DNA of 64,000 nucleotides from an uncultured Chloroflexia bacterium (GTDB lineage: Bacteria > Chloroflexota > Limnocylindria > Limnocylindrales > CSP1-4). The notes under the pieces are model-generated. The model saw only the letters and a list, made by a program, of their open reading frames with translations, had not been told where the DNA came from and searched no databases. The stretch covers positions 336,817-400,816 of the forward strand of contig CAVRZZ010000003.1 of the NCBI GenBank assembly GCA_963725875.1, written 5' to 3'. Shown piece after piece: positions 2,924 through 31,775 of the stretch. The position numbers and the translations under genes were made by a program. Position 1 is the first letter of the stretch. Every line of letters begins with the position of its first letter.

Positions 2924-2981
2924 GGAGGGGCCCCCTTGGCATGGTCACCCGTGGAACGGACCCCCCACCGCGCCTCTTGCG

Positions 2982-3622: not shown

Positions 3623-3660
3623 CTCGGGCCGGGCTGCGGCGTTGCCGGCATGACCCCTCC

Positions 3661-6147: not shown

Positions 6148-6160
6148 CGGGAATCTCCTG

Positions 6161-6739: not shown

Positions 6740-6743
6740 GGCA

Positions 6744-9668: not shown

Positions 9669-9685
9669 GGTCGTTCCCCTACCTC

Positions 9686-15480: not shown

Positions 15481-18400
15481 GGTGAGGCCGTTGACCGTGC
15501 TCTTGCCGTTGGCGGACGTCACCTTCAGCTGGTGCGGACCCTGGCCGACGGACGGCGAGATCGTCGCGGTCACCGTGATCTGGGTGTCGTTCCACGTGGC
15601 CGTGGTGATCGGGGTGCCGTCCAGCGTCAGCTGGCCGGTGCCCTTGGCGGCGCCGAAGCCCCGGCCGTAGATCGTGAACGCCGGCTGCGTGCCGGTCGTG
15701 TACGGCCGCGAAACCGCATAGAGCTCCGGGGCGCGGGTCGCGGCAGTGCCCGCCGGGTCGTTCACCGAGCAGGAGACCGCCTGGAACGTCGTGGTGCCGG
15801 GCAGCTGGATCGTCACGCCGACCTGGGTCGGCGCCGTGTCGGCCGGGACGATGATGCCCGGCCAGGCCTCGAAGTCGGCCGCGATCGTCCGGAACTGCGG
15901 GTTGTAGTTGGGGTTGAGCCGGCCCGGGATCCCCGGGTCGTTGCCGACGAAGCGGTAGACGTTGCCGCACACGCCCGACGGGGTCGGGCAGTTGATCCGG
16001 TCCGTCGACGGCAGGAGGACGTCGAACAGGCCGTTGTAGTCGGTCTCCACCGTGGTGATCAGGCGGTTGGCGAAGTCGTAGATGCCGACCGGGGTGAACG
16101 GAAGGCCCGCCTTCTCACCGTAGAGCAGCGACTTCGGGTCGGTCGAGAAGTTGAGGTCGTCGACGTTGTAGGCGAAGAAGCGGCCCGGGAGCGGCACGTC
16201 GGTGAAGACGTTGAACATCGGGACGACCGACTTGCCGTTCTGGAGCGTGACGAGCTTCGTGTCGCACAGCGGCTTGGCCTGGCCCTCGAAGGGCGAGCCG
16301 CCGAGCCGGTCGGCGAACGTCGGGTTGTCGGTGGGCGTCGAGGCAGCCACGGCGACCGTGGCGCTGCCGATGCCGGACGGGTCGACGATCGTGGTCGCCG
16401 GGTAGACGTCGATGCCGGTGGGGTCGTTCGCGACGTCGACCTGGTGCAGAGGGCCGACGCACGCGGGCGGCGGGACCTGCGGGACGAAGCTGTCGCCCGT
16501 CGCGATGTTGATGTCCTCTTCGCGGGTGACCTTGTAGACCGGATCGCCGTTGTTGTCCGTCACGCCCGGGAGGTCGACATGGACGAGGTAGTCGGCCGCG
16601 GGGAGCGCCGTGAAGGTGCCGCCGACACAGACCGGGTTGGCCGGGTCGGTGGCGTCGAGCGTGCCGTCGAAGCAGCCGTCGCCGAAGCCGTAGTTGCCGT
16701 CGACGGCGGCGCCGAAGTTGGCGTCGGCGGTCCCCTGGTCCGTGGCGTACGTCCCGAACTGGACGCCCATCAGCGGACCCTCGAGGCAGCCCTTGCCGTC
16801 GCCGACCGGCAGGACCTGCTGGTCCGCCGGGTTGGCGAGAGGCGTCCCGTCGACGTCGCGGGCGATGCAGTCCGTCGGCCGCTGCCAGGTCTCGGTGACG
16901 TACGTGTTCAGGAGCTTGCCCTGGGCATACGACCCGTCGGCCGGGTTGAGCGCGTAGTCGCCGTTCGCGTCGCACGGCACGGTGCCGTACTCCGGGCTGC
17001 CTTCGAGCGGGCAGTCGACCGGGGCGTAGAGGTTGACCGTCAGCCCGGAGACGCCGGGCTGCCAGTCCTCCGCCGCCGCGTACCGCGGATCGAGCTCGTT
17101 GCGGGTCGTGTCGTAGCTGACCGATCCGACGATGCCGCCGTTCTGCGGGTCGACCCCGTTCGCGCCGGTCGGGTCGTAGGCATGGACACCCCAGTCGAGG
17201 GTGCCCGAGAGGCCGATGATCGGCAGGACGCTGACGTCGACGCCCGCACCGAGCACGGTCGTGGGCGTCGGCTGGTTGTCGGCCTGGTAGGTGACGCCGG
17301 TCGTGTAGTAGCGATCGTCGTAGGCCTCGAGGACGAGCCACTCCGTCAGCGGGTAGGCGTTCTCCATCACGTAGTAGCCGCTGGCGTTGGTGGTGACCAG
17401 GGTCGCGCCGCGATCCATCAGCGAGTTCTCGCGCTTGCGGAGCGTCAGCGTGATGTTCGGGACGCCCTGCTCTCCGGCGTCGCGCCGTCCGTTGCGGTTC
17501 GCGTCGTTGAAGACGTAGCCGTCGAACTTGGTGAACCAGCCGGTCAGGGGCCGGACCCCCATGTCGACGGTCTCGCCGTTGGCGACGGTCACGTTGAGCA
17601 GGTCGAGGATGTAGTTCTGGGGCTCGTCCCAGTACGTGATCGTGTAGCTGCCGGCGGGGACGTTCGGGATCGTGAACGTGCCGTCGGCGCCGCCGCGACC
17701 CATCCACACGGCCGTGTCGCCGTTGTTGAGGTCGGACAGGGTGATCCACGGCTTGTCGATCGGCTTGTCGACCTTGCCGCCGCAGAGGCCGCCCCAGATG
17801 GTGCCCGGCAGGCAGGCCCCGCCCGTGGTCGGGACGTAGACCTTCATGGCGTCGATGACGCCCTTGATCGTGCCCGTGCCTCCGGCCCACGAGTCGCCGT
17901 AGGACTTCGACGCGGTGGCGGGATGCGTCCAATGGCTGGCGGCCGGTCCCGGGACGAAGCCGAAGATCTGGGCCGGGAACGGCTCGCCGGCGACGACGAA
18001 CTCCGTGTCGAGGCCGGTCGAGCCCTCCATCTCCCAGGCGTCCCAGTCGTGGTTGCCCTCGAGGGTCGTCGTCTGGACCCAGTTCGAGCCCGTCGGCGGG
18101 ACGGCGGACAGGGCATACCGGTTCGGCCCCAGGTTCGGGATCGTCAGGAGGCCCGGGTCGAGCTGCGGGTCCGAGTAGAGCACGCCGTCGGTGCCGGTCC
18201 AGGTGTTCGTGCTCGGGTGGTAGGTTGCGTCGACGACGCCGTCCATGTTGATGTCGCCGGACAGGCACTTGCCGCCCAGGTGGGTGACGATCGGCGCGTT
18301 GTCGGCGTCGAGGACGATCTCGTCGCCCGGGTCCTGGACCCCGTTGTTGTTCAGGTCGTTGAACTGGTACTTGGTGCACAGCGGGTTGCCGAAGACGTCG

Positions 18401-19125
18401 GTCGTGACCTGCCCGATGTAGTCCGCGATGAAGCCCTGGAACCCGGTCAGGCCGTCCTCGCCGGGGTCGTACTGGCCGTTGGCCGAGGTGATGTCCGCGA
18501 AGACCTGCGCCTTGATGGTCGCGGTCGGCAGGGGGCTCGGCTGCAGGGGCACCTCGACCACACCGGGTGCCTCCATCGGGATCGTGAACGGGGTCCCGTC
18601 GAGCTTGAATCCGTCGGCCAGCACGGAGATGAGGTACCGGCCCGGCGCCAGGTTGGAGATCCCGGTCGTGGTGTTGAGGGTCGTCTCGTCACCCTGCGCG
18701 GCGACCGGCGCGGAGCTCGCAAGCCCAGCGATCGAGGTCCACGTGCAGGAGTCCGGGTAGGCGGTGTTTGGCTGCGTATGGGCCGCGTCGAGCCACGCGG
18801 AGCAGTCCCCGCCCGGGTTCGCGTTCCGCGCGGTGTTCTGGCCGGTGTTGTCCTTGTTGATGATCCACTTGTACGTCGCGACGGGGTCGCCCTCGGTCAC
18901 GCCGGCGCCGCCGAGCGCCCTGGGCTCCGTGCGGGCGGCCTTGACCGCGAGCTTGATGGTGCTGGTCGGGGCGGCCGGCGCCGCCGCCGGGGCGGCGGCG
19001 GTGGTGATCGGAGCGGCCTGTGCCACCGGCACGGCCAGCTGCGTCACGATCATCGCCGCGCTGGCGAGCCAGATGCCCAGGAACCGGAGCGTCCGGTGCC
19101 GCTGGCCAAATCGCGAATGACCCAT
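15367..19125 (-). CDS. Giant secreted cell-surface protein with SdrD-B/CnaB-type and carboxypeptidase-regulatory-like repeats (adhesin-like)
   Basis: ATG at 19125 has an SD (GGAG 9 nt upstream) and a signal peptide 'MGHSRFGQRHRTLRFLGIWLASAAMIVTQLAVPVAQAAP'. One uninterrupted ~1250-aa frame with Asp/Asn/Gly/Thr-rich beta-repeats such as 'FDGYVFNDANRNGRRDAGEQGVPNITLTL' and 'TFTIPNVPAGSYTI'. The frame stops at 15367. The +1 frame continues from ~15475 ('...LTF|SIEFGGSYNPQLF...') into beta-helix sequence, which suggests a frameshift into the next feature. Confidence 0.75.
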   Translation of the reverse strand: MGHSRFGQRHRTLRFLGIWLASAAMIVTQLAVPVAQAAPITTAAAPAAAPAAPTSTIKLAVKAARTEPRALGGAGVTEGDPVATYKWIINKDNTGQNTARNANPGGDCSAWLDAAHTQPNTAYPDSCTWTSIAGLASSAPVAAQGDETTLNTTTGISNLAPGRYLISVLADGFKLDGTPFTIPMEAPGVVEVPLQPSPLPTATIKAQVFADITSANGQYDPGEDGLTGFQGFIADYIGQVTTDVFGNPLCTKYQFNDLNNNGVQDPGDEIVLDADNAPIVTHLGGKCLSGDINMDGVVDATYHPSTNTWTGTDGVLYSDPQLDPGLLTIPNLGPNRYALSAVPPTGSNWVQTTTLEGNHDWDAWEMEGSTGLDTEFVVAGEPFPAQIFGFVPGPAASHWTHPATASKSYGDSWAGGTGTIKGVIDAMKVYVPTTGGACLPGTIWGGLCGGKVDKPIDKPWITLSDLNNGDTAVWMGRGGADGTFTIPNVPAGSYTITYWDEPQNYILDLLNVTVANGETVDMGVRPLTGWFTKFDGYVFNDANRNGRRDAGEQGVPNITLTLRKRENSLMDRGATLVTTNASGYYVMENAYPLTEWLVLEAYDDRYYTTGVTYQADNQPTPTTVLGAGVDVSVLPIIGLSGTLDWGVHAYDPTGANGVDPQNGGIVGSVSYDTTRNELDPRYAAAEDWQPGVSGLTVNLYAPVDCPLEGSPEYGTVPCDANGDYALNPADGSYAQGKLLNTYVTETWQRPTDCIARDVDGTPLANPADQQVLPVGDGKGCLEGPLMGVQFGTYATDQGTADANFGAAVDGNYGFGDGCFDGTLDATDPANPVCVGGTFTALPAADYLVHVDLPGVTDNNGDPVYKVTREEDINIATGDSFVPQVPPPACVGPLHQVDVANDPTGIDVYPATTIVDPSGIGSATVAVAASTPTDNPTFADRLGGSPFEGQAKPLCDTKLVTLQNGKSVVPMFNVFTDVPLPGRFFAYNVDDLNFSTDPKSLLYGEKAGLPFTPVGIYDFANRLITTVETDYNGLFDVLLPSTDRINCPTPSGVCGNVYRFVGNDPGIPGRLNPNYNPQFRTIAADFEAWPGIIVPADTAPTQVGVTIQLPGTTTFQAVSCSVNDPAGTAATRAPELYAVSRPYTTGTQPAFTIYGRGFGAAKGTGQLTLDGTPITTATWNDTQITVTATISPSVGQGPHQLKVTSANGKSTVNGLTFYRIRRVLQPAALRGGSDQQPELHSGQGKRRAVVHAG

Positions 19126-19193
19126 TGCCTGGTACTCCTCGTTCCTGATTGCCCGTCGAATGCCGGCCCCGGAGGCGCGGCGGTCACCTGTGC

Positions 19194-19841
19194 TCATCGA
19201 TCGCCTCCGGCGTGGGTGGTTCCCGCGGTCGCGGGAGACTCGAACGGCCCATCCGACGCGGCCAGCGCCGGTGCGGATGCCTGGGCCGGGTGCATGGATG
19301 GGGCCGCCCGCCACGCGCCTCGCCAGGGCATGCCGGCGAGCAGCGAGATGGGGGCGAGGACGAGAACCGCCGCCTCCAGCGCATACAGGGCGTCGGCCGC
19401 GAGGTCGTCGAGGAGGCTGACGCCCGCCTCTTCCTCTGCGCCGAACAGCAGGCCGTGAAGCTGGTTGCCGGGGATGCTGAGGGCGGCGAACAGCAGTGCG
19501 GCGAGCACCCCCCAGAGGGCCATGGTCGTCAACGACGCGCGCTCCCCCGGCTCCGTTGGTCGGAGCCTGGCGACGAGGAGCGCGGCGATGACGACCGCGA
19601 CGGCCCCGAACGGCACGGCCAGCGCCGTGTCACGGAGCCAGTGCAGAACTGGCGGCAGCTCGTGGTGCTCGTGCACGCCCGCGTGGACGAGCTGCAGAAG
19701 GGCGATCGGCACGGCCGCGAGCAGCCACGCGTACACGACCACCCGGCCCGGCAGCAGGCGGAACCCCGCGCCGGCAGAACCCTCGCCGGGTTCAGGCGCG
19801 CGAGCGCGGGCGTCGACCTGGTCCATCATCGTCGCGGTCAT
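19194..19841 (-). CDS. Hypothetical polytopic membrane protein
   Basis: 215 aa with about four hydrophobic TM segments. Lies directly upstream of the giant adhesin on the same strand. No recognised domain. Confidence 0.4.
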   Translation of the reverse strand: MTATMMDQVDARARAPEPGEGSAGAGFRLLPGRVVVYAWLLAAVPIALLQLVHAGVHEHHELPPVLHWLRDTALAVPFGAVAVVIAALLVARLRPTEPGERASLTTMALWGVLAALLFAALSIPGNQLHGLLFGAEEEAGVSLLDDLAADALYALEAAVLVLAPISLLAGMPWRGAWRAAPSMHPAQASAPALAASDGPFESPATAGTTHAGGDR

Positions 19842-21790
19842 TGGCCATCTCCCTGCTCGGCCCTGGTCGGGTCGCTGACACCTGGTGTTGGGGTTGGGGT
19901 TGGGTCGAATTGGGTCACGGGCCAGCTCACGGTCACGCGGACCACGACCGGCTCGCCGCCGGCCGCCGTGATCGACCCATCGATGGCGCTCATCAGGTCC
20001 AGGACGAGGAGGTACTCGCCGGGCAGGTCGGGCGCCGTCAGGCGGAGGGAGACGCGCTCAGTGGCTCCCGGGGCGAGGTCCAGCTTCGCCCACGCCGCCG
20101 CCGTCTCCGGCGCCGACGTCGCCAGGTCGAGGCGGACCCAGTGCCCGACGAGCAACGCCTTCGGGTCCGCCGGGGCGGCGTCGAACTCGTCGGACGAAAC
20201 GGTGGCCGGCGGCGCGACCCACGGCACGGCGCCGCTGTTCGAGACGGCGACCGGGAGTTCGATGGTGGACCCCGTCGCCAGGTCGAGGTGGTTCGGGGCG
20301 CTGATCGACGCCGAGAGCGGCCTCGTCACCCGGACCATCACGGCAGGCACGGGCGCCTGGGTCGTGGCCGGGAACGCGGCTCCCTCGGGATCATGGACGG
20401 TGGTCACCAGGCGGTACAGGCCCGGGGCATCCGGCGCGACGATGCTGGCCGTCAGGCGCCGCTTGCCCGACGTCACGTCCGCGAGCACCACGACCGCGCC
20501 GAGCACCTCCGGAGTCACGAGCGGCGTCACGGATGGCGCCTCGATCGGGACGGCCAGGGGCCCGGCCGGGGTCGGGGACGGGGCGTCCACCGCGGCCGAG
20601 GTCGGGGCCGGGGCCGACGTGGCGGCCGGGATCGGGGCCGGGGCGTCCACCGCGGCCGGGGCCGGGGCCGGCGCGTCGGCCGGGATCGGGGCCGGGGCGT
20701 CCACCGCGGCCGGGGTCGGGACCGGGGCGTTCACCGCGATCGGATCCCACCGGACGCCCAGGCCGAGCGATGCGACCGGATCGGTGCCCGGCTGGGAGAA
20801 CGTGACGACGAGCTCGACCGACGTGCCGGCGACCGGGATCCCGCGCAGGCGGACGGACTCGACGGTCGGCGGGATCCGCGGCTCGGGGGTCGGGAGCGCC
20901 GCCGGGCTGGCCCCGGCCGTGCCCGGGTCGGCGCGCAGGGCGGCTCCCCGGGCGACCTCGCCGGCGCGCAGGTCGGCCCGCGTCACGAGGGAGCGGTAGA
21001 ACTGGCTGCGGGGCCGGGTCGGGTCGAGGAGCGCCGTCAGGCCCGGGGTCCGGACGCTGGGGAAGGCGATGACGTGGTCGTGGAAGGTGGGCGCGGCCCG
21101 CCAGATCCCCTCGACCGTCCCCTTCCCGGCGAGGATCGCCTCGACGTAGTAGGCCGGGCCGAGGTACCCGTCGGCGATGACCGCCGAGGCCCCCGCGGCC
21201 AGGAACCCCGCCGCGAAGTTGTCGACCCGCTGCCGGGCGACGTCGAGGGTCCCCTCGGGCAGGCCCGGCTCCGAGTTGCCCGAGGCGTAGCACAGGTGGG
21301 AGAGGACGACGACGGCGTTGGGGGCGAGGGTCACCGAGCGGGCCAGGTGCCACTCGCCGAAGTACTGGTGGGCCACGTCGTCGACGCCGGCCACCGGGTT
21401 GAGGCCCAGGCCGTCCTGGGTCCGCGGGTTCAAGGTCCGGCTGTAGCGGCTGGGCCAGCCGTTGCCGTGGCCCAGGTAGACGACGACCGACGCGCCGGCC
21501 AGGGCGGCCCTGGCGGCCTTCCACGTCGCGTCCGGGGAGTAGACCGTGACGACGTCGTCGGTGAACCGGCGCGCCGCGGCGGCGGCCTTCTCCGCGTCGG
21601 CCCGGTAGCTGTCCGTCAGCGCGCCCACCGGGCCGACGATGATCGCCACCCTGGGAGCCGCGGCCCGGACGCCCGGCTGCGCGAAGGGGGCGACGCCGAA
21701 GAGCATCGCGAGCGCCAGGAGCACGACGATCGACAGGCGGGGACCGAGGCGCCGAGCCGCGCGGCTCTGGTCGCCGTGAACGACCTCCAT
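19838..21790 (-). CDS. Secreted protein, paralog A: N-terminal caspase-like (clan CD-like) His/Cys domain, Ala/Pro-rich linker, C-terminal Ig-like domains
   Basis: Signal peptide after the ATG at 21790 ('MEVVHGDQSRAARRLGPRLSIVVLLALAMLFGVAPFA'). Domain blocks 'RVAIIVGPVG', 'VVVYLGHGNGWPS', 'HQYFGE', 'VVLSHLCYASGNSEPG'. About 60% identical over the N-terminal domain to the CDS at 25863-27734. The peptidase assignment rests only on the spacing of the GHG and CxxG motifs. Confidence 0.65.
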   Translation of the reverse strand: MEVVHGDQSRAARRLGPRLSIVVLLALAMLFGVAPFAQPGVRAAAPRVAIIVGPVGALTDSYRADAEKAAAAARRFTDDVVTVYSPDATWKAARAALAGASVVVYLGHGNGWPSRYSRTLNPRTQDGLGLNPVAGVDDVAHQYFGEWHLARSVTLAPNAVVVLSHLCYASGNSEPGLPEGTLDVARQRVDNFAAGFLAAGASAVIADGYLGPAYYVEAILAGKGTVEGIWRAAPTFHDHVIAFPSVRTPGLTALLDPTRPRSQFYRSLVTRADLRAGEVARGAALRADPGTAGASPAALPTPEPRIPPTVESVRLRGIPVAGTSVELVVTFSQPGTDPVASLGLGVRWDPIAVNAPVPTPAAVDAPAPIPADAPAPAPAAVDAPAPIPAATSAPAPTSAAVDAPSPTPAGPLAVPIEAPSVTPLVTPEVLGAVVVLADVTSGKRRLTASIVAPDAPGLYRLVTTVHDPEGAAFPATTQAPVPAVMVRVTRPLSASISAPNHLDLATGSTIELPVAVSNSGAVPWVAPPATVSSDEFDAAPADPKALLVGHWVRLDLATSAPETAAAWAKLDLAPGATERVSLRLTAPDLPGEYLLVLDLMSAIDGSITAAGGEPVVVRVTVSWPVTQFDPTPTPTPGVSDPTRAEQGDGQ

Positions 21791-22099
21791 TGCCCGCGAC
21801 GAACCGCGCAGCAACCACCCCGTCTCGCCACGTCCGGTCGTGGCCGGCCCACCCAGGCGCAACCTGCAACTCCCCTGCGCCGCCGCGGCTCACCCGGCAG
21901 GTGGCCCCCCGGCCACCGTCGGCGCCGGGTGTCATCCGCGGCGGTATCGCACGTCCGGATGCTGCACGCGCCGGGGGGCAGTGAGCATCGGGGCCGCTCT
22001 GCATTCGACCCCGGGTGGGGCCCCGGAACCCGCCGCGGCTCGACCCGGTTTCGCTGGGGGTCAAGACCTGAGGCCGTGGGCCCGAAGCGGGCCGACGCC

Positions 22100-22768
22100 C
22101 TAGCGGTTGGCCGGGATGAGACCCGAGCGGATCGCGTACCGCACGAGACCGGCGACATCGTGGATGTCGAGCCGCTCCATCAGCTGCGCGCGATGCGTCT
22201 CGATCGTCTTGACGCTGAGGTTCAGCGTGGTCGCCATCTGGTGGTTCGTCCGGCCCTCGGCGACGAGCTGCAGGATCTCGCGCTGCCGCCGCGTCAGGCC
22301 GTCGGACGTGCCGTCGCCGTCGTCCGGGGCGCGCCGGAGGTAGTCGGACACGACGTGCCGCGACACCATCGGGCTGAGGTAGGAGCCGCCCTGGGCCACG
22401 GCCCGGACTGCCAGCTCCAGCTCCAGCGGGCTCGAGTCCTTGAGCAGGTAGGCGGCCGCGCCCGCGCGCAGCGCCTGGCGAACGTACTCCTCGTTGTCGT
22501 GCATCGAGAGGACGATCACGCGGACGTGCGGGTACTCGACACGCACATGGGAGATGACCTGGATGCCGCTCAGACCCGGCATCGTGATGTCGAGGACGGC
22601 AACGTCGGGCAGGTGCTCCGCGATCACCGAGAGCGCCTCCCGGCCGTCGGCGGCCTCCGCGACCACCCGGACCCCCGGGATTGCCGACAGGAGGGCACGG
22701 AATCCCGCCCGCACGAGCGCGTGATCCTCCGCCAGGACCACGTTGATCGCCGGCGGCGGGTATGTCAT
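22100..22768 (-). CDS. Two-component response regulator, NarL/LuxR family
   Basis: Receiver domain ('VVLAEDHALVRAGF', 'VAVLDITMPGLSG') plus C-terminal LuxR HTH ('LTRRQREILQLVAEGRTNHQMATTLNLSVKTIETHRAQLMERL'). Start ATG overlaps the kinase stop (ATGA). Confidence 0.9.
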   Translation of the reverse strand: MTYPPPAINVVLAEDHALVRAGFRALLSAIPGVRVVAEAADGREALSVIAEHLPDVAVLDITMPGLSGIQVISHVRVEYPHVRVIVLSMHDNEEYVRQALRAGAAAYLLKDSSPLELELAVRAVAQGGSYLSPMVSRHVVSDYLRRAPDDGDGTSDGLTRRQREILQLVAEGRTNHQMATTLNLSVKTIETHRAQLMERLDIHDVAGLVRYAIRSGLIPANR

Positions 22769-23580
22769 CGGACGATGACCGGCCGGCCAACGGGGAAGCG
22801 CGCGATCACGCGGGTTCCGTCGCCGATCCCCGCCCGGACCTCGACCGCCCCGTCGACGAGCGCGGCACGCTCGGCCATGCCGGCGATCCCGACACACGTG
22901 GCCCCCGTGCAGCGTGTCGGGTCGAATCCGACGCCGTCGTCGGAGACGTCCAGGACGAGGACGCCTGTCCGCGGTCGCAGCCCCACGCGCACGCGCAGCC
23001 GCCGGGCATCGGCGTGCCGGACGGCGTTCGTGATCGCCTCCTGGGCAACCCGGAAGCACGTCGTCTCGACCTCCGCCGAGAGCCGCACGTCCCCGAGCGT
23101 AACCAGGCACGAGATGGCGAGTCCCGATCGTTGAGCGACCTGACGGCACAGCGCCCGCAGGGCGGGGCTGAGCCCGACGTCGTCGAGGAGGGCGGGACGC
23201 AGGTCGAAAGCCGCCGTGCGGACCTGCAGGAGCGCCTCGTCGATCGCGGCGATGCTGTCGAGGAACTCGGCGCTCTCGACGAGCTCGGCCCCGCTTGCGC
23301 CTGTCCACGCATTGACGTGCGCCAGCGACGTGAGGTTGAGGCGAACCAGGGTGAGCGCCTGCCCGACGACGTCGTGGAGGTCGCGCGCGATCCGCGCCCG
23401 CTCGGCCTCCTGGGCGGCCACCAGGCGCGCCCGCGTGGCGCGGTCGTGGCCCTCCAGCCCGTCGTTGGGTCGGTGGATCCCGGTGCCGGGTCGTCCCGGC
23501 CCCAACGTCACGGACTCCCGTGCACCGGCCCGACCCGGGACGAACGTGATCGGCCCCGCCTGGGGCATGTACGCGGCCAT
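22765..23580 (-). CDS. Sensor histidine kinase, HisKA_3/NarX-DesK type, apparently cytoplasmic with no TM segments
   Basis: H-box 'IARDLHDVVGQALTLVRLNL' and HATPase_c blocks 'EAITNAVRHA', 'DDGVGFD', 'GIAGMAERAALVDG'. Start chosen at the ATG of 'MAAYMPQ'. The ORF could extend upstream to 23751. Confidence 0.8.
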   Translation of the reverse strand: MAAYMPQAGPITFVPGRAGARESVTLGPGRPGTGIHRPNDGLEGHDRATRARLVAAQEAERARIARDLHDVVGQALTLVRLNLTSLAHVNAWTGASGAELVESAEFLDSIAAIDEALLQVRTAAFDLRPALLDDVGLSPALRALCRQVAQRSGLAISCLVTLGDVRLSAEVETTCFRVAQEAITNAVRHADARRLRVRVGLRPRTGVLVLDVSDDGVGFDPTRCTGATCVGIAGMAERAALVDGAVEVRAGIGDGTRVIARFPVGRPVIVR

Positions 23581-23843
23581 CCGAATGCTCCTCCATTCCC
23601 GCGACGACTGAGCCTCCCCTGGCTCCCGGCCACCCAGCCTGTCGACCGCCACGGGTCTGCGGCCGACCTCCCCGCCGAGTCCCAGGCAAGCCCACTCCGA
23701 CGGGTGGCCGCAAGGATCGGGTGGGCTGGACACGGCGTCTATAGTCGTCAACGACCATTCGGAAGGTCCGCGGCTTGGTCACGGTGGGGTGGGACGACAG
23801 GCGGTGCCGGCGGCCGAGCCGGCCCGCTCGATGGGGGCGCACG

Positions 23844-24968
23844 ATGTCCCGAGTGGGGTGGGGCGCGAGAGGACCGCAGCGGGGGCCCTGGCTGATCGCA
23901 CGCCCGCTACGGTTGCTGGTGGTGCTCGACGCAGCCGGGATCGCGCTCGCCGCCGCCGTCGTCGCCCAGCTCGGCGATCCGGACATCCTGCTCCACCTGG
24001 TCTGGATCGTCCTCGCGATCGAGGCCTTCGCCTTCGGCCTGCGCATCGTGTCCGTGCGGATCGCCGCCGCGGCGATCTTCGTGGTCGGCTATGGCGTCGC
24101 GAGCAACGGGGACGCCACGCCCCTGGCTGCCGCCCTGTCCGACCTCGACTTGAAGGAGTGGCCGCTCATGGCCGTGATCGCCGTCCTCGTGGCGGTCATG
24201 GCCGATCGCGTGCTCGTCAAGGGGCGGCGCTACGCGGCGCTGTACCGCGCGGCCAGCGATCGGCTGCTGACGGCCCAGGAAGACGAGCGACGACGCCTGG
24301 CGACCGACCTGCACGACGGCGTCGGGCAGACCCTGACTGCCCTCGCCCTCACGCTCGACGCGGCGGAGACGGCCCTCGCGAACCCGCAGGAGTCCGGTGC
24401 GGCGGGGATGGCAGATGTCCACCGGGCACGCGAGATGGCCGGCCTGGCGCTCGAGGACGTCCGCGGCGTCGCCATGCGCCTGCGCCCGGCGCGGTTCCAG
24501 GAAACCGGGCTCGTGGCAGCCATGCGCGAGCTCGCTGCCGCGGCGGGGGTGCCCGTCGAGTTCTCCGCCGACGTGTCTCTCATGCGTCCGGAGCTGCTGG
24601 ACCCCGATCGCGAGGTTGACGTGTACCGGATCGTCCAGGAGGCACTCGGGAACGCCACGCGTCACGGGAAGCCGCGTCGGGTCCGGATCACCGTCGCGCG
24701 CGTCGACCTCCTGCTGCGGGTCGAGGTGGCAGATGACGGCGCGGGGTTCGACCCCGACAGGACCGATGAACGAGGCCTCGGGCTCACGAGCATGCGCGAC
24801 CGCGCGTCGGCAGTCCGCGGAACGCTCCACGTTCGTTCGCGACCCGGCACGGGAACCGTCGTGCGGCTGGAGGTCCCGCTCTCCGCGGACGTCGTGGCGT
24901 CGGTGGTGGACGGAGCCGCGAGCCCGGCGTCGGCCACGGCCGCCCAGTCGGGAGCGCAGGCAGGGTGA
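23844..24968 (+). CDS. Membrane sensor histidine kinase, HisKA_3 type
   Basis: Four hydrophobic segments, then 'RRRLATDLHDGVGQTLTALAL' and HATPase blocks 'QEALGNATRHG', 'DDGAGFD', 'GLTSMRDRASAVRG'. Alternative upstream start at 23775. Divergent from the minus-strand kinase. Confidence 0.8.
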   Translation: MSRVGWGARGPQRGPWLIARPLRLLVVLDAAGIALAAAVVAQLGDPDILLHLVWIVLAIEAFAFGLRIVSVRIAAAAIFVVGYGVASNGDATPLAAALSDLDLKEWPLMAVIAVLVAVMADRVLVKGRRYAALYRAASDRLLTAQEDERRRLATDLHDGVGQTLTALALTLDAAETALANPQESGAAGMADVHRAREMAGLALEDVRGVAMRLRPARFQETGLVAAMRELAAAAGVPVEFSADVSLMRPELLDPDREVDVYRIVQEALGNATRHGKPRRVRITVARVDLLLRVEVADDGAGFDPDRTDERGLGLTSMRDRASAVRGTLHVRSRPGTGTVVRLEVPLSADVVASVVDGAASPASATAAQSGAQAG

Positions 24969-25678
24969 TGGAGGACGGCAACCGCCGTCCCGCCGCGCCG
25001 CCGGGCTCCCGCCGGGTTCCCGCCGGGGCCGGGGTCACGCCCCAATCGCCCCTGCGGGTCGCGCTCGTGGACGACCATCACCTCGTTCGCGAGGGCCTGC
25101 GCCACGTCCTCGACCTGCAGCCCGGGATCCTGGTCGTCGGCGAGGCGGCCGGTCGCGTCGAGGCCTTCGACCTGCTCGCCAGCGGCCAGCCCGACATCGT
25201 GCTTCTCGACATCACGTACCCCGACGACGACGGCCTCGCGATGCTCCGCGAGATCGCTGCCCGCCGGCCCGACGTGCGCGTGCTCGTGCTGACCATGCAT
25301 CGCGATGCCGAGACCGTGCGGCAGGCGCTCCGCGCGGGTGCGGCGGGCTACGTCGTGAAAGGCGCGCGCACCAGCGAGCTCCTCGAGGCCATCTGGGCGG
25401 TCGCCCGCGGAGAGCGGTACCTCCACAGCAGCATCGCGGGCGTCATCACCGACGACGCGCGCTGGATGGAGGCGGGCAGCCCGCTCAGCCCGCGCGAACG
25501 CGAGATCCTGGCCCACATCGCGGCGGGGGCATCGGCCGCGGAGGTCGGGCGAACCCTCGGGATCAGCCCGTACACGGTCCGCCGCCACGTGGCCAACCTC
25601 TCGGCGAAGCTCGGGCTGAGCGGCCCCAAGGCGCTGACCCGGTATGCCGTGGAGCACGGGCTGATCCGCGACGCCTGA
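24965..25678 (+). CDS. Two-component response regulator, NarL/LuxR family
   Basis: 'RVALVDDHHLVREGLRHVL', 'DIVLLDITYPDDDGL', C-terminal 'LSPREREILAHIAAGASAAEVGRTLGISPYTVRRHVANLSAKL'. ATGA overlap with the kinase stop. Confidence 0.9.
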   Translation: MMEDGNRRPAAPPGSRRVPAGAGVTPQSPLRVALVDDHHLVREGLRHVLDLQPGILVVGEAAGRVEAFDLLASGQPDIVLLDITYPDDDGLAMLREIAARRPDVRVLVLTMHRDAETVRQALRAGAAGYVVKGARTSELLEAIWAVARGERYLHSSIAGVITDDARWMEAGSPLSPREREILAHIAAGASAAEVGRTLGISPYTVRRHVANLSAKLGLSGPKALTRYAVEHGLIRDA

Positions 25679-25862
25679 CCGGCTGGGGTCGACCGGGCGC
25701 CGGTGATGCGCCGCGCGCTCCTCGGCCGGCCGGTCAGGGGGTGCGCTGCGCGCTCGACGAGGAATGCCGGGACATGGCAGGCCGGCACGCCAGGGTGCAG
25801 CGCACGCGACCAGTAGCGTGTCGCGCGCGCGGCTGGCCCTGCAGCGTGGCCGGCGCCCCGTT

Positions 25863-27734
25863 TCAGTCGCCGGCGGGCGTCGGGACCAGCGGAGCGGAGA
25901 CCACGACGACCGTCACCGTGATCGGGCGGCCGAGCACCTGGGGTGAGCCCTCGCCCGAGGACCGCTCGAGGCTGGCCACCAGGAGATACGTCCCCGAGTC
26001 CGTGGGTACCGGGCCCGAAAGCCAGCTCGACTGCGCGCTCGCCGCCGGGATCGCGAGCTCCCGCACGATGGGAGGCGCTCCCCCGATGCCCTCGAGGGGG
26101 ACCCAGCGGCCGACCAGGCGGACAGCCGAGCAGACCGTGCCGTCGTCCGGCCCATAGCGGCGCGGATCGGAGGTGCAGCCGCCCCACGGGGCCGCCTCGC
26201 CGTTCGTGACGACGACCTGCACCGATGCCAGCGTGCCGGCGGTGACCGACACGGCCGGCGGAGCGTCGAGCCAGGCGGCGCCCGGGCCGCCCACGTGGAC
26301 CACGAGACCCGGGATCGCGGCCTGGACCGCGTACGGGAAGGCGACGCCGTCGCGGTCGTGGATCGTGACCTCGAGGCGGTAGCGCCCGATCGCGGCCGGC
26401 AGCGTGACCGCGCCGACGAGCCCGCCGGCGGCGACGGTCGCCGGGACGACGTCGACGCGCGAGGCGGTCGACTCACGCGCGACGAGGGTCGGGTCGTCGG
26501 CCGGCGCTGGCTCCGTGCCGGCGGGATCCGGGCTGGCCGTGGCCCCGCCCACGGGCGGCGTGGTGGCCGGGCCCGGGCTGGCCGTGGCCGGCTCCGCGCC
26601 GGCGGGCGCCGGTTCGGCCGTCACACCGGCGGAGGGCGGCGGGCTGCCCGAACCCGGCTCCGCGCCGTCCGAGGGCGCCGGTTCGGCCGTCACACCCGTC
26701 TCGTCGAGCGGCACCCAGCGGGTGCCGAGTCGATACGCGGTCCCGAGCGCGACCCCGGCGGGCACGTCGACGGGGAGCCGGAGCGCGACGTTGGCGTCGG
26801 CGAGCGGCATCCCCGCGAGCGTCGGGGCGCCGGGCTGGGCCCCCAGGTCGAAGGCGTCCGGCGCGACGGACGGCTGTGGCGGCAGGATGAACTCCCAGGC
26901 GCCCGGGTCGCTCTCTCCCGGCGCCGGGCCGGACGGGACGATGCCACCCGTGCCGGCCGCCATCACGAGCGACCGCGCGAAGCCGCCGGACGCGCTCTTC
27001 GGGTCCATCAGCGCGATCGCGCCGGGCGTTCGCGTGCTCTCGAAGGCGCGGACATTGCCGTTCGACGTCGCAGCGCGCTCCCACGCGGTGCGGGCCGACG
27101 CGCGCTTCCCGAGCAGGGTCCGGAGGTACGGGGCGGGAGACGCGTAGGCGTCGGCCACGACCGCCGACGCTCCCGCGGCCAGGAAGCCGGCGGCGTAGTT
27201 GTCGACGCGCTGGCGCGCCGTGGCCTCGCTGCCCTCGGCAACACCGGGCTCCGCGAGGCCCGACGCGTAGCACAGGTGGAGGAGCAGGACGACGGCTCCC
27301 GGCGCCAGGCGCACCTGCTCGGCGACGATCCCCTCGCCGAAGTACTGGTGCGTGGCGTCACCGCGCCCGCCGACCGGGTTGAGCCCGAAGCCGTTCTGGA
27401 CGGAGGCGCGGAGCTTCGTCCCGTAGGGGCTCGGAAACCCGTTCCCGTGCCCGAGGTAGACGACGACCGAGGCGCCCTGGAGGGCCGCGCGAACCCGCGG
27501 CCACGTCGCGTTCGGGGAGTAGATCTCGACGACGTCGTCGGTCCACCGGCGCGCCTCTGCCGCTCCGGCGCGCCCCCAGCTCCGGTACGTCTCCGTGAGC
27601 CCTCCGACGGGGCCCACGACGATCACGACCCGCGGATCGGGCGCCGCCGCCCACGCGGTCGCAGGCGCCGAGCCGACCAGGAGCAGGCCCGAGAGCAACA
27701 GCCCGATGGTGAGGCGGACCCGACGTCCGGTCAT
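25863..27734 (-). CDS. Secreted protein, paralog B of the 19838-21790 gene: caspase-like His/Cys domain plus Ig-like C-terminal domains
   Basis: Signal 'MTGRRVRLTIGLLLSGLLLVGSAPATAWAAAP'. Blocks 'RVVIVVGPVGG', 'VVVYLGHGNGFPS', 'HQYFGE', 'VLLLHLCYASGLAEPG' align with paralog A. Confidence 0.65.
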   Translation of the reverse strand: MTGRRVRLTIGLLLSGLLLVGSAPATAWAAAPDPRVVIVVGPVGGLTETYRSWGRAGAAEARRWTDDVVEIYSPNATWPRVRAALQGASVVVYLGHGNGFPSPYGTKLRASVQNGFGLNPVGGRGDATHQYFGEGIVAEQVRLAPGAVVLLLHLCYASGLAEPGVAEGSEATARQRVDNYAAGFLAAGASAVVADAYASPAPYLRTLLGKRASARTAWERAATSNGNVRAFESTRTPGAIALMDPKSASGGFARSLVMAAGTGGIVPSGPAPGESDPGAWEFILPPQPSVAPDAFDLGAQPGAPTLAGMPLADANVALRLPVDVPAGVALGTAYRLGTRWVPLDETGVTAEPAPSDGAEPGSGSPPPSAGVTAEPAPAGAEPATASPGPATTPPVGGATASPDPAGTEPAPADDPTLVARESTASRVDVVPATVAAGGLVGAVTLPAAIGRYRLEVTIHDRDGVAFPYAVQAAIPGLVVHVGGPGAAWLDAPPAVSVTAGTLASVQVVVTNGEAAPWGGCTSDPRRYGPDDGTVCSAVRLVGRWVPLEGIGGAPPIVRELAIPAASAQSSWLSGPVPTDSGTYLLVASLERSSGEGSPQVLGRPITVTVVVVSAPLVPTPAGD

Positions 27735-27924
27735 GGTGCGATACCGACCCCCTGTCCACGCTCCGCCGTCGTCCCGGTCCGACCCGGGCGACCGTCGCGC
27801 CGCGTCACGTCCTCCCGACATTCTGCACCAGTCCGCTGCACGCGCGGTTACCCGCCATCGTGCCGGACGCCGGCAGTCTCTGCCAGCCCGGCGGCGAAAC
27901 GCAAGGGCCGTTCGGCCGCTGCTG

Positions 27925-27985
27925 GAAGTGTCGCCCGGGTCCGGGTGGACCTGCGCGGACCGGGCGACGTCGCCCGACGGGATCC
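27925..27985 (-). terminator. Candidate stem-loop terminator downstream of rbsK
   Basis: Just after the rbsK stop the minus strand carries the perfect palindrome CGGGCGACGTCGCCCG, nested in a longer imperfect inverted repeat (GCCCGGGTCC...GGACCGGGCG). There is no U-tract, which is usual in high-GC genomes. Confidence 0.25.
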
Positions 27986-27992
27986 GCGGGCC

Positions 27993-28910
27993 CTACTCGC
28001 CGAGGGCGGCCGCCAGCTCCGCGGCCGTCGGCATCCCGTCGCGCGCTCCCGGCCGCGTGGTCGAGAGGCCCGCCGCGGCAACCGCCCGCGCCGCAGCCTC
28101 CGCCAGGCCGCGACCCGCGGCCAGCCCCGCCGCGAGCGCACCGTTGAACGTGTCCCCGGCGCCCGTCGTGTCGACGGGGGCGACCGGCCGGGCCGCGATC
28201 ATGAGCGCCGCGCCCCCGGCGGGCACCAGCAGCGCTCCCGCCGCCCCCAGCGTCACCAGGATCGCCCGGCCGGCCGGCACGCCACCGAGGACCGACCGGG
28301 CGGCCGCCTCCGTCGGGAGGTCGCCCGCAATCGCGGCGAGCTCGGTCTGGTTCGGCGTGAGCACGTCGGCGAGCGCGAGCGTGGCCACCTCGAGCCCGTC
28401 GGCAGGGGCCGGGTTGAGGACCGTCGTGGCACCGGCGCGGCGGGCCGCGCCCAGGGCCGCCCGGACGGCGGCGGTCGGGATCTCGCGACAGGCCAGGACG
28501 ACGTCGCCCGGACCGACCGCCAGCGCCGTGAGCGCCGCCTCCGCGGCTGCCGCGGTCAACGCCCCGTTCGCGCCGGGAGCCACCGCGATCAGGTTCTCGG
28601 CGTGCTCGTCGACCACGATGAGGGCCACGCCGGTCGGTCGCTCGACGGTCGCAAGGTAGGCGACGTCGATCCCCTCCCCCGCGAGCGCCGCCCGCGCAGC
28701 GACGCCGAAGTCGTCGGCACCGATCGCCCCGACGAAGGCGACGCGAGCTCCCAGGCGCGCGGCCGCCACGGCCTGGTTGCCACCCTTCCCGCCGTGGTGG
28801 CGGGCGACGTCCCCGCCGGTCACCGTCTCGCCGGGGCCGGGGAGGCGCGGGGCGACGACCACGAGGTCCACGTTCACGGATCCGACGACGACGACACGAC
28901 CCGGCCTCAC
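27993..28910 (-). CDS. rbsK: Ribokinase
   Basis: 'VVVVGSVNVDLVV', 'GETV', 'GGKGGNQAVAAARLGA', and the anion-hole motif 'DTTGAGDTFNGA'. GTG start overlaps the upstream stop (GTGA). Confidence 0.85.
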   Translation of the reverse strand: MRPGRVVVVGSVNVDLVVVAPRLPGPGETVTGGDVARHHGGKGGNQAVAAARLGARVAFVGAIGADDFGVAARAALAGEGIDVAYLATVERPTGVALIVVDEHAENLIAVAPGANGALTAAAAEAALTALAVGPGDVVLACREIPTAAVRAALGAARRAGATTVLNPAPADGLEVATLALADVLTPNQTELAAIAGDLPTEAAARSVLGGVPAGRAILVTLGAAGALLVPAGGAALMIAARPVAPVDTTGAGDTFNGALAAGLAAGRGLAEAAARAVAAAGLSTTRPGARDGMPTAAELAAALGE

Positions 28911-30427
28911 GCCTCCACCCCCTCGGCCTTCCAGTCCCGGACGAACTCCTCCTGGGCGCGTCGCTCCACCGTGCCCGGCCGAACCGCGCGGACGCGCGTG
29001 ATCGCGTCGCGCGGGTCGACGCCGCCGTCCACGAGGAGGCAGGCGACGGCGGTCCCGGTCCGCCCCAGCCCGCCGCGGCAGGCCACGACGACGCGCTCGC
29101 CTGCCCGGACCCGGCCCGAGACGTCGTCGAGGGTCGCCCGGAACGCCGAGCGGTCGCGCGGCACCTCCATGTCGCGGACGGGATGCCGGATCACGCGGAT
29201 GCCGGCTGCCTCCAGCGCCGGGATCGTGCCCCACGCGCGGCTGATGTCGAGGTCGATGTCCTCCACGAGGAGGAGGAGCGTGGTGCAGCCGTGGACGTCG
29301 CGAAGCCGCTGCGCGTCGGCGGCCGCGTCGCGCCACTGGGGCCCGCCGTAGCCGCGGCGCTTCTTGCCGGGCAGGAGCGTCATCCCGAGCGCACCGCCGG
29401 TGCCGGCCAGCCCGGGAACCCGATCGAGGGGCACCCAGTCGACCCGCAGCGGGTTGACGGTCGAGGTCCGCCACCCGGCCTCGGCCAGGAGCCGGTCCAG
29501 CAGCTCGCCCACGATCTCCCGGCCGCGCAGCCTGGCCAGCCAGACCTGGGGGATGCTTCCCACGCCCCAGCGGATCCCGGCCAGGCCGCCGGCGATCGCC
29601 GCCGTCGTGTCGGTGTCGTTGCCGAAGCGCACGGCACGGACGACCGCGTCCTGGTAGCAGTCCGCCGTGGTGGCGGCCTCCCACGCCGACCAGAAGGCGT
29701 CCGCGGCGTGGCCGCCGCCCGTCCGCCGGCTCCAGGCGAGGAGCCCGGCGAGGGCCGGCGCGAGCGGAGAGCCCGCCACGACCTCGCCCATCGCCTTCCG
29801 GGCGGACGCGAGTGCCGCCCCGGGGTCGTCCGACCGCTCGAGGAGGCGCCGGGCGAGCAGGACGTAGAGCGCGCAGGCGACCCGTGCCAGGGGATCGCCG
29901 TGGGTCACGCCGGACGCGGCGCTCGCCCATCCGACCAGGGTTGCGTCGTCCCGGCCGCGTCCCGCGAGGGCCACCGGGAGGATCCGCATGAGCGACCCGT
30001 TGCCCAGCGCGTGCGGCGTCACGCTCCCCGACCGGTCGGCCGGCACGCCCGCCTGGAGGGCGTGCACGGCGGCGAGCGTCGCGCCTCCGACGTCGAATGC
30101 CCCGTCGCCGTCCGGCGTGTAGGCGCCGTGCTCGTGCCACGCCCGGATCCGGCGCCCCTGGTCCTCGGGATCGAAGCGGACGACCGGCCGGCCACCGGCC
30201 GGATCCGCCACCAGGAGGGAGTCCAGCAGCGCGAGCATGAGCGCGCCGTCGTCGCTCCACGTGCCCGGGGGCTGGCCGTGCGTGCCCGGCGCCCCGAACC
30301 GCACCTCGCCGATGGACTCGGGTGGGCGGAACTCGTATGGGACGCCGAGAGCATCCCCGACGAGATGGCCCCAGACGGCGCCCTCCAGGCGCTCGGCCTC
30401 CTGCTCCAGCCGGTCCATGCACGCCAG
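28907..30427 (-). CDS. ADP-ribosylglycohydrolase (DraG/ARH-like) fused to a C-terminal Cys-based protein-tyrosine/dual-specificity phosphatase-like domain
   Basis: N-terminal 'LVGDALGVPYEF' and 'FGNDTDTTAAIAGGLAG' are ARH family signatures. C-terminal 'VVVACRGGLGRTGTAVACLL' is a CX5R P-loop. About 506 aa from the ATG at 30427. Confidence 0.8.
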   Translation of the reverse strand: MACMDRLEQEAERLEGAVWGHLVGDALGVPYEFRPPESIGEVRFGAPGTHGQPPGTWSDDGALMLALLDSLLVADPAGGRPVVRFDPEDQGRRIRAWHEHGAYTPDGDGAFDVGGATLAAVHALQAGVPADRSGSVTPHALGNGSLMRILPVALAGRGRDDATLVGWASAASGVTHGDPLARVACALYVLLARRLLERSDDPGAALASARKAMGEVVAGSPLAPALAGLLAWSRRTGGGHAADAFWSAWEAATTADCYQDAVVRAVRFGNDTDTTAAIAGGLAGIRWGVGSIPQVWLARLRGREIVGELLDRLLAEAGWRTSTVNPLRVDWVPLDRVPGLAGTGGALGMTLLPGKKRRGYGGPQWRDAAADAQRLRDVHGCTTLLLLVEDIDLDISRAWGTIPALEAAGIRVIRHPVRDMEVPRDRSAFRATLDDVSGRVRAGERVVVACRGGLGRTGTAVACLLVDGGVDPRDAITRVRAVRPGTVERRAQEEFVRDWKAEGVEA

Positions 30428-30512
30428 CGTAGCGGGCCGCGGGCGAGCGCGGGGCGTACGATCGGACACCACGTCCCTCGTCGCCGCCCCGTCTCGCCAC
30501 CCGGAGGTCAGG

Positions 30513-31064
30513 ATGTTCCGGCTCCTCTCGACGCTCCTCGCGAAGCGCCTGGCCCGGCGCTTCGCGAAGCTCCTCGCCCTTCTCCTCGGCGCCTCGATCG
30601 GGGCCGGCGTCGCCAGCGCGCTGGCCGCGCTGAACCTCAAGAAGAAGGCACCGCCGCTCCCGGACCCGGCCGACGACGTCATCGACGTCGTCGCGATCAT
30701 GGAAGGCGCGCAGCTCGCCAGCCGCGCGACCGCCTTCCGCGGCGGCCGGCTCGTCTGCTGGTACGCGGGGGTCGACCTGGACCTGCGCGACGCGACGCTC
30801 GCCCCCTCTGGTGCGCATCTCGAGGTGCGGACCGTGTTCGGCGGCACCCGCGTCGTCGTCGCCCAGGGCGTGCCGGTCCGCGTCGGCGGACCCGCGATCT
30901 TCGGCGGCACGATGAACTCGACGGGTGCGCCCCAGCCGTCGGCCGACGCCCCGGGGCTGGAGATCACCGGCTTCACGATCTTCGGCGGGCTCCAGGTCAT
31001 CGCCGCCGAGCAGGGCGAGGAGATCCCCGGCTGGACCGGCGAGCGCGACCGCCCGCCGGCCTGA
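30513..31064 (+). CDS. Membrane-anchored beta-rich protein, LiaF/DUF2154(DUF4097)-like
   Basis: GGAGG 6 nt upstream of the ATG. N-terminal TM 'LLALLLGASIGAGVASALAAL', then 'LVCWYAGVDLDLRDATL...FGGTRVVVAQGVPVRVGGPAIFGG' repeats typical of LiaF-C-like domains. Confidence 0.5.
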   Translation: MFRLLSTLLAKRLARRFAKLLALLLGASIGAGVASALAALNLKKKAPPLPDPADDVIDVVAIMEGAQLASRATAFRGGRLVCWYAGVDLDLRDATLAPSGAHLEVRTVFGGTRVVVAQGVPVRVGGPAIFGGTMNSTGAPQPSADAPGLEITGFTIFGGLQVIAAEQGEEIPGWTGERDRPPA

Positions 31065-31094
31065 CCTGCGCGGCAGGAGCCGTAGACTCCGCGG

Positions 31095-31775
31095 GTGACC
31101 ACCGTCCTCCTCGTCCGCCACGGGCTCACCCCCCTGACCGGCCCCGTGCTGGCCGGCCGGGCCCCCGGCGTCCATCTCGACGAGCGCGGCCGCGCGCAGG
31201 CAGCCGCGCTGGGCGAGCGCCTGCGCGCCGTTCCCCTGGCCGCCGTCGTGTGCTCGCCGCTGGAGCGCTGCCGCGAGACGGCCGACGTCATCCTTGCCGG
31301 GCGCGACCCCGCGCCGCCCTTGCACGTCGAAGCGGGCGTCGCCGAGGTCGACTATGGGACCTGGACCGGCCGTGATCTGAAGGCACTTCGCCGGGAGCCG
31401 CTCTGGGCGGTGGTCCAGGGCCACCCGTCCGGCGCGGTCTTCCCCGGCGGCGAGGGTCTCGCCCAGGTCAGCGCGCGGGCGGTGGCGGCCGTGCGCCGCT
31501 GGAACGCGACGCTGGGGCCGGACGCGACGTACGTCCTCGTCAGCCACGGGGACGTCATCAAGGCGATCCTCGCCGACGCCCTGGGCCTGCACCTCGACGG
31601 CTTCCAGCGGATCGGTGTCGGTCCCTGCGCCCTCTCCGTCGTGCGCTACGGGACGGCTGCCGTGGCCGTGGAACGGGTCAACGACACCGGGGGAGGCGTG
31701 GCTGCCCTCGTGCCCGCACCCCCGCGAAGCCGGCGCGGCACGCGCGCCCCGGCGACCGGGCGTCCGGCGCGGTAG
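31095..31775 (+). CDS. Histidine phosphatase family protein (phosphoglycerate-mutase-like)
   Basis: GTG start. 'VLLVRHGLT' RHG motif, 'LERCRETA', 'LVSHGDVIKAIL'. Confidence 0.8.
   Translation: MTTVLLVRHGLTPLTGPVLAGRAPGVHLDERGRAQAAALGERLRAVPLAAVVCSPLERCRETADVILAGRDPAPPLHVEAGVAEVDYGTWTGRDLKALRREPLWAVVQGHPSGAVFPGGEGLAQVSARAVAAVRRWNATLGPDATYVLVSHGDVIKAILADALGLHLDGFQRIGVGPCALSVVRYGTAAVAVERVNDTGGGVAALVPAPPRSRRGTRAPATGRPAR

Follow-up and report, generated by a model that had tools for sequence, protein, structure and literature searches.

A 2025 review (PMC12445089) counts eight recognised families in clan CD of the peptidases. In the description of the clan, the His/Cys dyad sits on L3 and L4, the loops that follow strands beta3 and beta4, a conserved Gly stands beside the His, a small beta section lies between beta3 and alpha3, and the central sheet of the caspase type runs in the order 2-1-3-4-5-6 (PMC4357240). 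Here we analyse two paralogous genes, A and B, carried on 64,000 nucleotides from an uncultured Chloroflexia bacterium (GTDB lineage Chloroflexota; Limnocylindria; Limnocylindrales; CSP1-4; assembly GCA_963725875.1, contig CAVRZZ010000003.1, positions 336,817 to 400,816). We refer to this whole stretch as the window and use its coordinates throughout. The predicted fold and the conservation of two residues suggest to us that A and B probably belong to an unannotated family of secreted or cell-surface clan CD (caspase/gingipain-fold) His/Cys endopeptidases, which would on present evidence be a further sequence family of the clan beyond the recognised ones.

Among known enzymes, the gingipains RgpB and Kgp (MEROPS C25, clan CD) come closest by structure and by a layout in which a catalytic domain precedes immunoglobulin-like (Ig-like) modules, with the CHAT proteases next. 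The A/B family differs from gingipains in several respects: it never reaches the Pfam C25 model, A and B have no N-terminal prodomain, a C-terminal domain for type IX secretion was found in neither, and their host belongs to Chloroflexota rather than Bacteroidota. The spacing between His and Cys, about 33 residues in RgpB, is 59 residues in A and B, which also carry a conserved insert (GLNP...HQYFGE) and the Cys motif HLCYASG. CHAT proteases (SAVED-CHAT, the DdvA anti-sigma factor, Craspase TPR-CHAT) act as effectors of signalling and defence, either in the cytoplasm or tethered to the membrane, and are switched on by ligands or partners, whereas A and B are predicted to be secreted and have Ig-like tails. 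Relative to metacaspases, orthocaspases and legumain (C14, C13), A and B have neither a p10-like region nor a C-terminal legumain prodomain, and their motifs differ. A functional analogy only is provided by Cwp84 of Clostridioides difficile, which has a papain fold (clan CA), not a clan CD fold, and is anchored through CWB2; some relatives of A and B carry CWB2, but the Ig modules found in A and B are FW/CARDB-like instead. Cwp84, a cysteine protease, is localised to the cell wall and processes the S-layer protein SlpA (PMC12445089). Finally, the two-component genes that lie between A and B resemble LiaSR/DesKR-like NarL/FixJ systems in having the same REC + GerE regulators and HisKA_3 + HATPase_c kinases. 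One of the kinases, HK2, has short loops between its four transmembrane segments, and the other, HK1, differs in having no membrane or recognisable sensor domain.

Paralogues A and B and the predicted fold of their shared domain

The features of the two genes, with lengths in amino acids (aa), are as follows.

19838-21790, minus strand: paralogue A, 650 aa from ATG (open reading frame and translation); signal peptide, clan-CD-like catalytic domain, short beta module, Pro/Ala linker and two Ig-like modules
21662-21790, minus strand: A, predicted signal peptide, aa 1-43, with a likely cleavage site between VRA and AAP
20921-21661, minus strand: A, putative catalytic domain, aa 44-290, modelled as a caspase-hemoglobinase fold
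21467-21469, minus strand: A, putative catalytic His108 codon, in a G-H-G motif directly after beta3
21290-21292, minus strand: A, putative catalytic Cys167 codon, in H-L-C-Y-A-S-G directly after beta4
20563-20738, minus strand: A, Pro/Ala-rich linker, a tandem DNA repeat
19841-20578, minus strand: A, C-terminal region, aa 405-650, two beta-sandwich (Ig-like, FW/CARDB-like) modules
25863-27734, minus strand: paralogue B, 623 aa, with an architecture like that of A
27648-27734, minus strand: B, predicted signal peptide, aa 1-29
27447-27449, minus strand: B, putative catalytic His96 codon
27270-27272, minus strand: B, putative catalytic Cys155 codon

An initial annotation, made from the sequence alone, had described A and B as paralogous open reading frames with signal peptides, Ala/Pro linkers, Ig-like C-termini and shared VVYLGHGNG and HLCYASG blocks, had suggested a caspase-like fold, and had placed the N-terminal domain in no named family. 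These claims have held up well. Both frames lie on the minus strand and align over 582 aa with 40% identity (E 1e-98), rising to approximately 50% in the N-domain. The conserved blocks are present in each protein, as VVVYLGHGNGWPS (aa 102-114) and HLCYASGNSEPG (aa 165-176) in A and as VVVYLGHGNGFPS (aa 90-102) and HLCYASGLAEPG (aa 153-164) in B, and the putative catalytic His108 and Cys167 of A have His96 and Cys155 as their counterparts in B. Upstream alternative starts are possible for both genes, at a TTG at 21862 for A and at an ATG at 27821 for B. The exact sequence of A has no match in the contig collection, and the G+C content of the window is 70-78%.

Hydropathy agrees with export of both proteins. 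In A, a hydrophobic core at aa 19-37 (Kyte-Doolittle 2.53) is followed by a small-x-small site; in B, the hydrophobic segment spans aa 6-26 and is followed by the small-x-small site AWA, next to AAP. Given the predicted cleavage sites, mature A would start AAPRVAIIVGP and mature B AAPDPRVVIVVGP; since the signal peptide directly abuts beta1, there is no room for an N-terminal prodomain. Homologues likewise have a hydrophobic N-terminal segment. The linker of A is encoded by a repeat of period 54 (2.9 copies, 86% matches, Tandem Repeats Finder), and the C-terminal part of both proteins is all-beta and Ig-like. Among family members of roughly 600 aa this C-terminal module is 30-58% identical, and in other members it is replaced or extended by FlgD_ig/Big_13 or CWB2 cell-wall-binding domains.

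We modelled aa 40-290 of A with AlphaFold2 on a 38-sequence family alignment, and domain positions given below are in model numbering, in which His69 is A His108 and Cys128 is A Cys167. The model (predicted local distance difference test, pLDDT, 87.7; predicted template modelling score, pTM, 0.88) reads b1(9-13)-a1-b2-a2-b3(63-67)-G68-H69-G70-two short strands-a3-b4(120-125)-H126-L127-C128-a4-b5. It thus presents an alpha/beta/alpha sandwich on a caspase-type sheet, with the His and an adjacent Gly after beta3 and the Cys after beta4, the canonical positions of the clan CD dyad; in this respect the model bears out the suggested caspase-like fold. The two short strands agree with the small beta section that the clan description places ahead of alpha3. 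Structure comparison of the model returned metacaspase-9 (10.8) and legumain (10.4), followed by MALT1, GPI8, caspases-1/3/8/9, CED-3 and separases. Foldseek placed SAVED-CHAT at the top (E 8e-4, TM-score 0.44), followed by C11 protease and separase, in weak agreement with that comparison.

The putative dyad is near-invariant in the family, with the His retained in 334 of 338 sequences and the Cys in 335 of 338. A small set of other positions is conserved to a similar degree: Arg149 (338/338), Glu107 (335/337), Glu135 (335/338), Asp151 (331/338), Asn152 (335/338) and an acidic residue at 168 (327/336). The remaining histidines are far less conserved, with His102 present in 273 and His126 in 292 of the 338 sequences.

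Profile matches and extent of the family

Neither A nor B has a match at threshold in Pfam, NCBIfam or the PDB sequences, and the 38-sequence family profile has none in the PDB, in line with the absence of a named family. Below threshold, the Pfam matches of the 38 homologues include Peptidase_C25 in 11, C50 in 5 and CHAT in 2, all of them clan CD models. The best of the C25 (PF01364) matches has E 0.0079, and the three that we inspected score 11-13 bits against a cut-off of 23 and end at profile position 243-244 of 374, which by residue count is at the GHG motif of the protein; A and B have no match to this model at E up to 0.1. For CHAT (PF12770), the better of the two matches reaches E 0.016. 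Peptidase_C14 and C13 do not appear in the Pfam results for A, B or the 38 homologues, and neither A nor B has a Pfam match in its C-terminal part that would point to the sorting domain of type IX secretion which, with a prodomain, accompanies C25 enzymes.

Several observations have to be set against an assignment to clan CD. The Foldseek TM-scores are only 0.34-0.44. Comparison of the family profile with human caspase-3 by hhalign, with an approximate query sequence, gave a non-significant probability of 0.2 and paired only VVVYLGHGN with VCVLLSHGE, and we do not count it as evidence. Kinship to known caspase-fold enzymes is thus at the level of the clan only. In the model, the loop just past the His (domain residues 73-78) has pLDDT <50, the residue before the Cys is Leu instead of the usual small residue, and the proximity of the two dyad residues is read from topology, from their position after the adjacent strands beta3 and beta4. 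Weak Pfam matches to Glyco_transf_4, a Rossmann-like model, cover the same N-terminal region with a best E of 0.003. A glycosyltransferase fused to the homologues was considered and rejected, as these matches are sub-threshold and overlie the same N-terminal alpha/beta region. An assignment of P1 preference to the enzyme, given with the mechanism below, is a guess from conserved acidic residues.

The family is large. A word-indexed search found >1650 relatives, none of them named, and an exhaustive hidden Markov model search found at least 1397 clusters at 50% identity (E up to 1e-3), or 621 at E up to 1e-30, with roughly 286 hits in the weak range from 1e-10 to 1e-3; cluster members have no informative names, and every source calls the relatives hypothetical. 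Arg-rich tails that are out of frame close many of the database homologues of A, which suggests error-prone assemblies. For genomic context we used the best 80 loci of at least 590 stretches from a scan of species-representative genomes, and almost all of these 80 come from Limnocylindria/Limnocylindrales or "Chloroflexia" metagenome-assembled genomes. The family is close to specific to the class Limnocylindria (Chloroflexota). Literature searches on Limnocylindria together with caspase found no paper.

Two-component genes and the surrounding neighbourhood

Between A and B, and downstream of A, lie the following features.

22100-22771, minus strand: RR1, NarL-type response regulator (Pfam Response_reg 1.1e-26, GerE 3.7e-16)
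22765-23751, minus strand: HK1, soluble HisKA_3 kinase (Pfam HisKA_3 and HATPase_c; no transmembrane segment)
23775-24968, plus strand: HK2, membrane HisKA_3 kinase (Pfam HisKA_3 and HATPase_c; four transmembrane segments, short loops)
24965-25678, plus strand: RR2, NarL-type response regulator (Pfam Response_reg 2.3e-26, GerE 2.2e-13)
21791-22099, minus strand: RR1-A intergenic region, with blocks conserved in loci L002 and L005 and a hairpin
19194-19841, minus strand: 215-aa membrane protein, four predicted transmembrane segments; its start overlaps the A stop (ATGA)
15367-19125, minus strand: SdrD_B/TIG-domain secreted protein of ~1250 aa (Pfam), the next gene on the strand of A

The initial annotation had recognised two divergent HisKA_3/NarL pairs between A and B, one with a soluble kinase on the minus strand and one with a membrane kinase on the plus strand, and we find the same arrangement: all four proteins score above the Pfam thresholds, and the genes of each kinase-regulator pair overlap by a few bases. 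Kinases of the intramembrane-sensing type often report envelope stress, and HK2, with four transmembrane segments and only short loops, has the layout of that type. HK1, divergently paired with this membrane kinase, is effectively a sensor-less soluble HisKA_3 kinase. The first ~100 residues of its longest open reading frame are of low complexity, and because L002 aligns only from aa 56 the start of HK1 is probably further downstream; the divergent control region between HK1 and HK2 would then probably be ~260 nt long, not 23 nt. The claim that A sits directly downstream of the first kinase-regulator operon stands as to strand and order but not as to immediate adjacency, as 309 nt separate A from RR1; co-transcription of RR1 and A is possible. 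B is convergent with RR2 and so cannot share its transcript. On its own strand, B lies downstream of a PfkB kinase gene and an ADP-ribosylglycohydrolase/phosphatase gene. In the latter (28907-31291, minus strand) the ADP-ribosylglycohydrolase is fused to a dual-specificity phosphatase domain (PTP-SAK/Tc-R-P), and the PfkB sugar kinase gene follows at 27993-29000 (minus strand).

The neighbours of A and B in the window were compared with those of the family members in the 80 loci, for which all open reading frames were clustered, and a neighbour-joining tree was built from the N-domains. Only two loci, L002 and L005, show the full order A-RR1-HK1, then HK2-RR2 in the divergent direction, and L029 shows it in part; the first two are 75-82% identical to the window at the DNA level and collinear with it over ~13 kb. 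A three-way alignment of the RR1-A intergenic region has a mean column identity of 71%, and within it several blocks, among them GCCCCGATG, GCAGCAT and GATTGCGC..GGGTGGG, are identical in L002 and L005. The region also contains a perfect 7-bp hairpin, GGTGGCC-GGGG-GGCCACC. The region might act as a promoter or an operator, or might form a structured 5' leader; no Rfam family matched within 19000-28500.

The initial annotation had read the locus as a duplicated module of sensor, regulator and secreted effector; on such a reading each two-component pair would control its own protease. The collinear gene order, the conserved intergenic blocks, the sensing type suggested by the layout of HK2, and the fact that 7 of the 10 A-clade loci carry a NarL-type regulator of some kind on the same strand, no more than 8 kb upstream, all speak for such a module. 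We nevertheless regard it as unlikely and find it unsupported. In the N-domain tree A and B fall in different deep and old clades, each with its own orthologues in other genomes. RR1 and RR2 are 39.5% identical, and HK1 and HK2 ~37%, values that we judge normal for paralogues of the NarL family. B is convergent with the regulator that would control it, the B orthologue of L002 is separated from RR2 by ~2.4 kb of other open reading frames, and L005 has no B copy within its 8-kb flank. The regulators of the other A-clade loci are not RR1 orthologues, since they are only 32-38% identical to RR1 (the protease domains there are 64-80% identical to A) and giant multicopper oxidase genes (Cu-oxidase_2 with Ig/fn3 domains) intervene between them and the protease gene. 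A NarL-type match of any kind occurs in only 9-13 of the 80 loci, and chance alone would, by a rough estimate that assumes ~1 NarL-type regulator per 100 kb, yield a similar number.

A looser regulatory link, in which the divergent HisKA_3/NarL pair beside A may control it, is retained as a local one and not as a property of the family. It too has evidence against it. RR1 and HK orthologues stand beside a family member in only 3 of the 80 loci (L002, L005 and, partly, L029); 11-14-mers shared by the HK1-HK2 intergenic region and the sequences upstream of A and of B are no commoner than in shuffles, so that no common control motif emerges; and a scan of 19000-28500 for sigma-70 promoters and intrinsic terminators found none. 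Most family members have no adjacent two-component system, and none is among the neighbours of the largest clades, which adjoin genes for a thioredoxin-like protein, MerR, an MFS transporter, LigD, Ku and subtilase. The synteny of A with the two-component genes is local to one genus-level group and may reflect regulation of the A operon.

Downstream of A, the ATGA overlap with the 215-aa membrane protein gene and the collinearity in L002 and L005 lead us to propose that, in this genus, A is probably in an operon with this small membrane protein and the giant adhesin-like SdrD_B/TIG protein. Only in these two loci is the membrane protein gene conserved in its place after A. The SdrD_B/TIG gene, which is likewise collinear there, has a GAGGAG ribosome-binding site 9 nt upstream of its ATG at 19125. 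Beyond it, at 13195-15380 (minus strand), the counterpart of a beta-helix protein that L002 encodes in one open reading frame of 942 aa is split over frames -3, -1, -2, -3 and -2, and is either a pseudogene or the product of assembly frameshifts. A run of secreted-enzyme genes follows downstream of the A operon at 3661-12519 (minus strand), comprising three multicopper-oxidase-like proteins (one with a twin-arginine (TAT) signal, one of 1157 aa with Big_13) and an 828-aa S8 subtilase; relatives of the subtilase and of the oxidases also flank family members in L017 and L077.

Among the related loci, the genes immediately upstream of the protease gene (at about 2000-7800) in L001, L003, L004, L006, L007, L027, L032 and L039 encode giant secreted multicopper oxidases of 1400-1900 aa, with Cu-oxidase_2 and Big_3_5/fn3 repeats, and in several of these loci a NarL-type two-component system lies upstream of the oxidases. 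Close homologues of these giant A-clade oxidases in the window were sought by tblastn and rejected for want of a significant match; the multicopper-oxidase-like genes of the window belong to a different subgroup. In many "core clade" loci a conserved cytoplasmic protein of ~225 aa is encoded just downstream of the protease gene (for example L008 10045-10800, L012 10085-10804 and L030 9634-10353). It has the motifs GLCGGM, NHQV(I/L)A(Y/F)GY and YDPNWP, no Pfam match and no homologue in the window, and by eye its Cys...His...Asp pattern resembles that of a papain-like fold.

Proposed mechanism and meaning for the family

In the mechanism that we favour, that of a secreted clan CD endopeptidase, A and B would be exported by the Sec pathway and cleaved after an AxA-type site, which would leave strand beta1 of the alpha/beta catalytic domain at the very start of the mature chain. 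By analogy with other clan CD enzymes, the Cys thiolate (Cys167 in A, Cys155 in B) would attack the peptide bond after the P1 residue and the His (His108 in A, His96 in B) would protonate the leaving group. The P1 pocket would be built from loops L1/alpha1, L4 and L5, as elsewhere in the clan (PMC4357240). An acidic pocket formed by Glu135 (L4) and Asp/Glu168 (L5) would make Arg or Lys the preferred P1 residue, as in gingipains, clostripain and metacaspases. At its other end the enzyme would be tethered to the cell surface or to its substrates by the C-terminal modules; relatives carry CWB2 or FlgD-Ig in this position. The neighbouring giant secreted proteins are candidate substrates. A 771-aa family member with a CWB2 domain, in L081 (ERZ25039492:contig_16807, 6001-8316), is flanked on one side by MreB, MreC and four genes of the dTDP-sugar-pathway type (a nucleotidyltransferase, epimerase/dehydratases and a dTDP-sugar isomerase) and on the other by GH18, a second CWB2 protein and GT2. 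The predicted signal peptides, the CWB2 and FlgD_ig relatives and the neighbours in L081 together lend support to a cell-surface location of the family.

It is quite unlikely that the family is a class-wide surface maturation or sorting enzyme of Limnocylindria, a clan CD protease or transpeptidase by which the adjacent large adhesins and multicopper oxidases would be processed or attached, with the A copy under envelope-stress control by the neighbouring intramembrane-sensing HisKA_3/NarL system. If this were true, a clan CD enzyme would do in Limnocylindria the job that sortases, PorU or Cwp84 do elsewhere. A related alternative to hydrolysis, which we consider very unlikely, is a clan CD-fold transpeptidase or sorting enzyme that cleaves a signal on surface proteins and transfers them to an envelope acceptor, as PorU (C25-like; type IX secretion) and GPI8 (glycosylphosphatidylinositol (GPI) anchors) do. 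Hydrolysis and transpeptidation are not separable by fold alone; against transfer, neither an acceptor nor a sorting motif nor a conserved substrate gene came to light, and the neighbours of most members (thioredoxin-like, MerR, MFS, LigD, Ku) have no envelope theme. It is highly improbable that the domain is not a peptidase at all; it would then be either a binding module without catalytic activity or an alpha/beta domain of Rossmann- or flavodoxin-like type that catalyses something else, such as a glycosyltransferase-like or amidase reaction.

The fold and chemistry proposed for A and B as secreted clan CD endopeptidases are familiar, and the understanding of caspase-fold enzymes is unchanged by them; what is new is a large, lineage-restricted and wholly unannotated family with a testable dyad. 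Hundreds of "hypothetical proteins" gain a putative catalytic dyad open to experiment and a domain boundary, and a domain definition is on offer for family databases. For the host class, abundant and uncultured Chloroflexota of soil and freshwater, the family would provide a handle on how very large secreted proteins are processed and displayed in these organisms.

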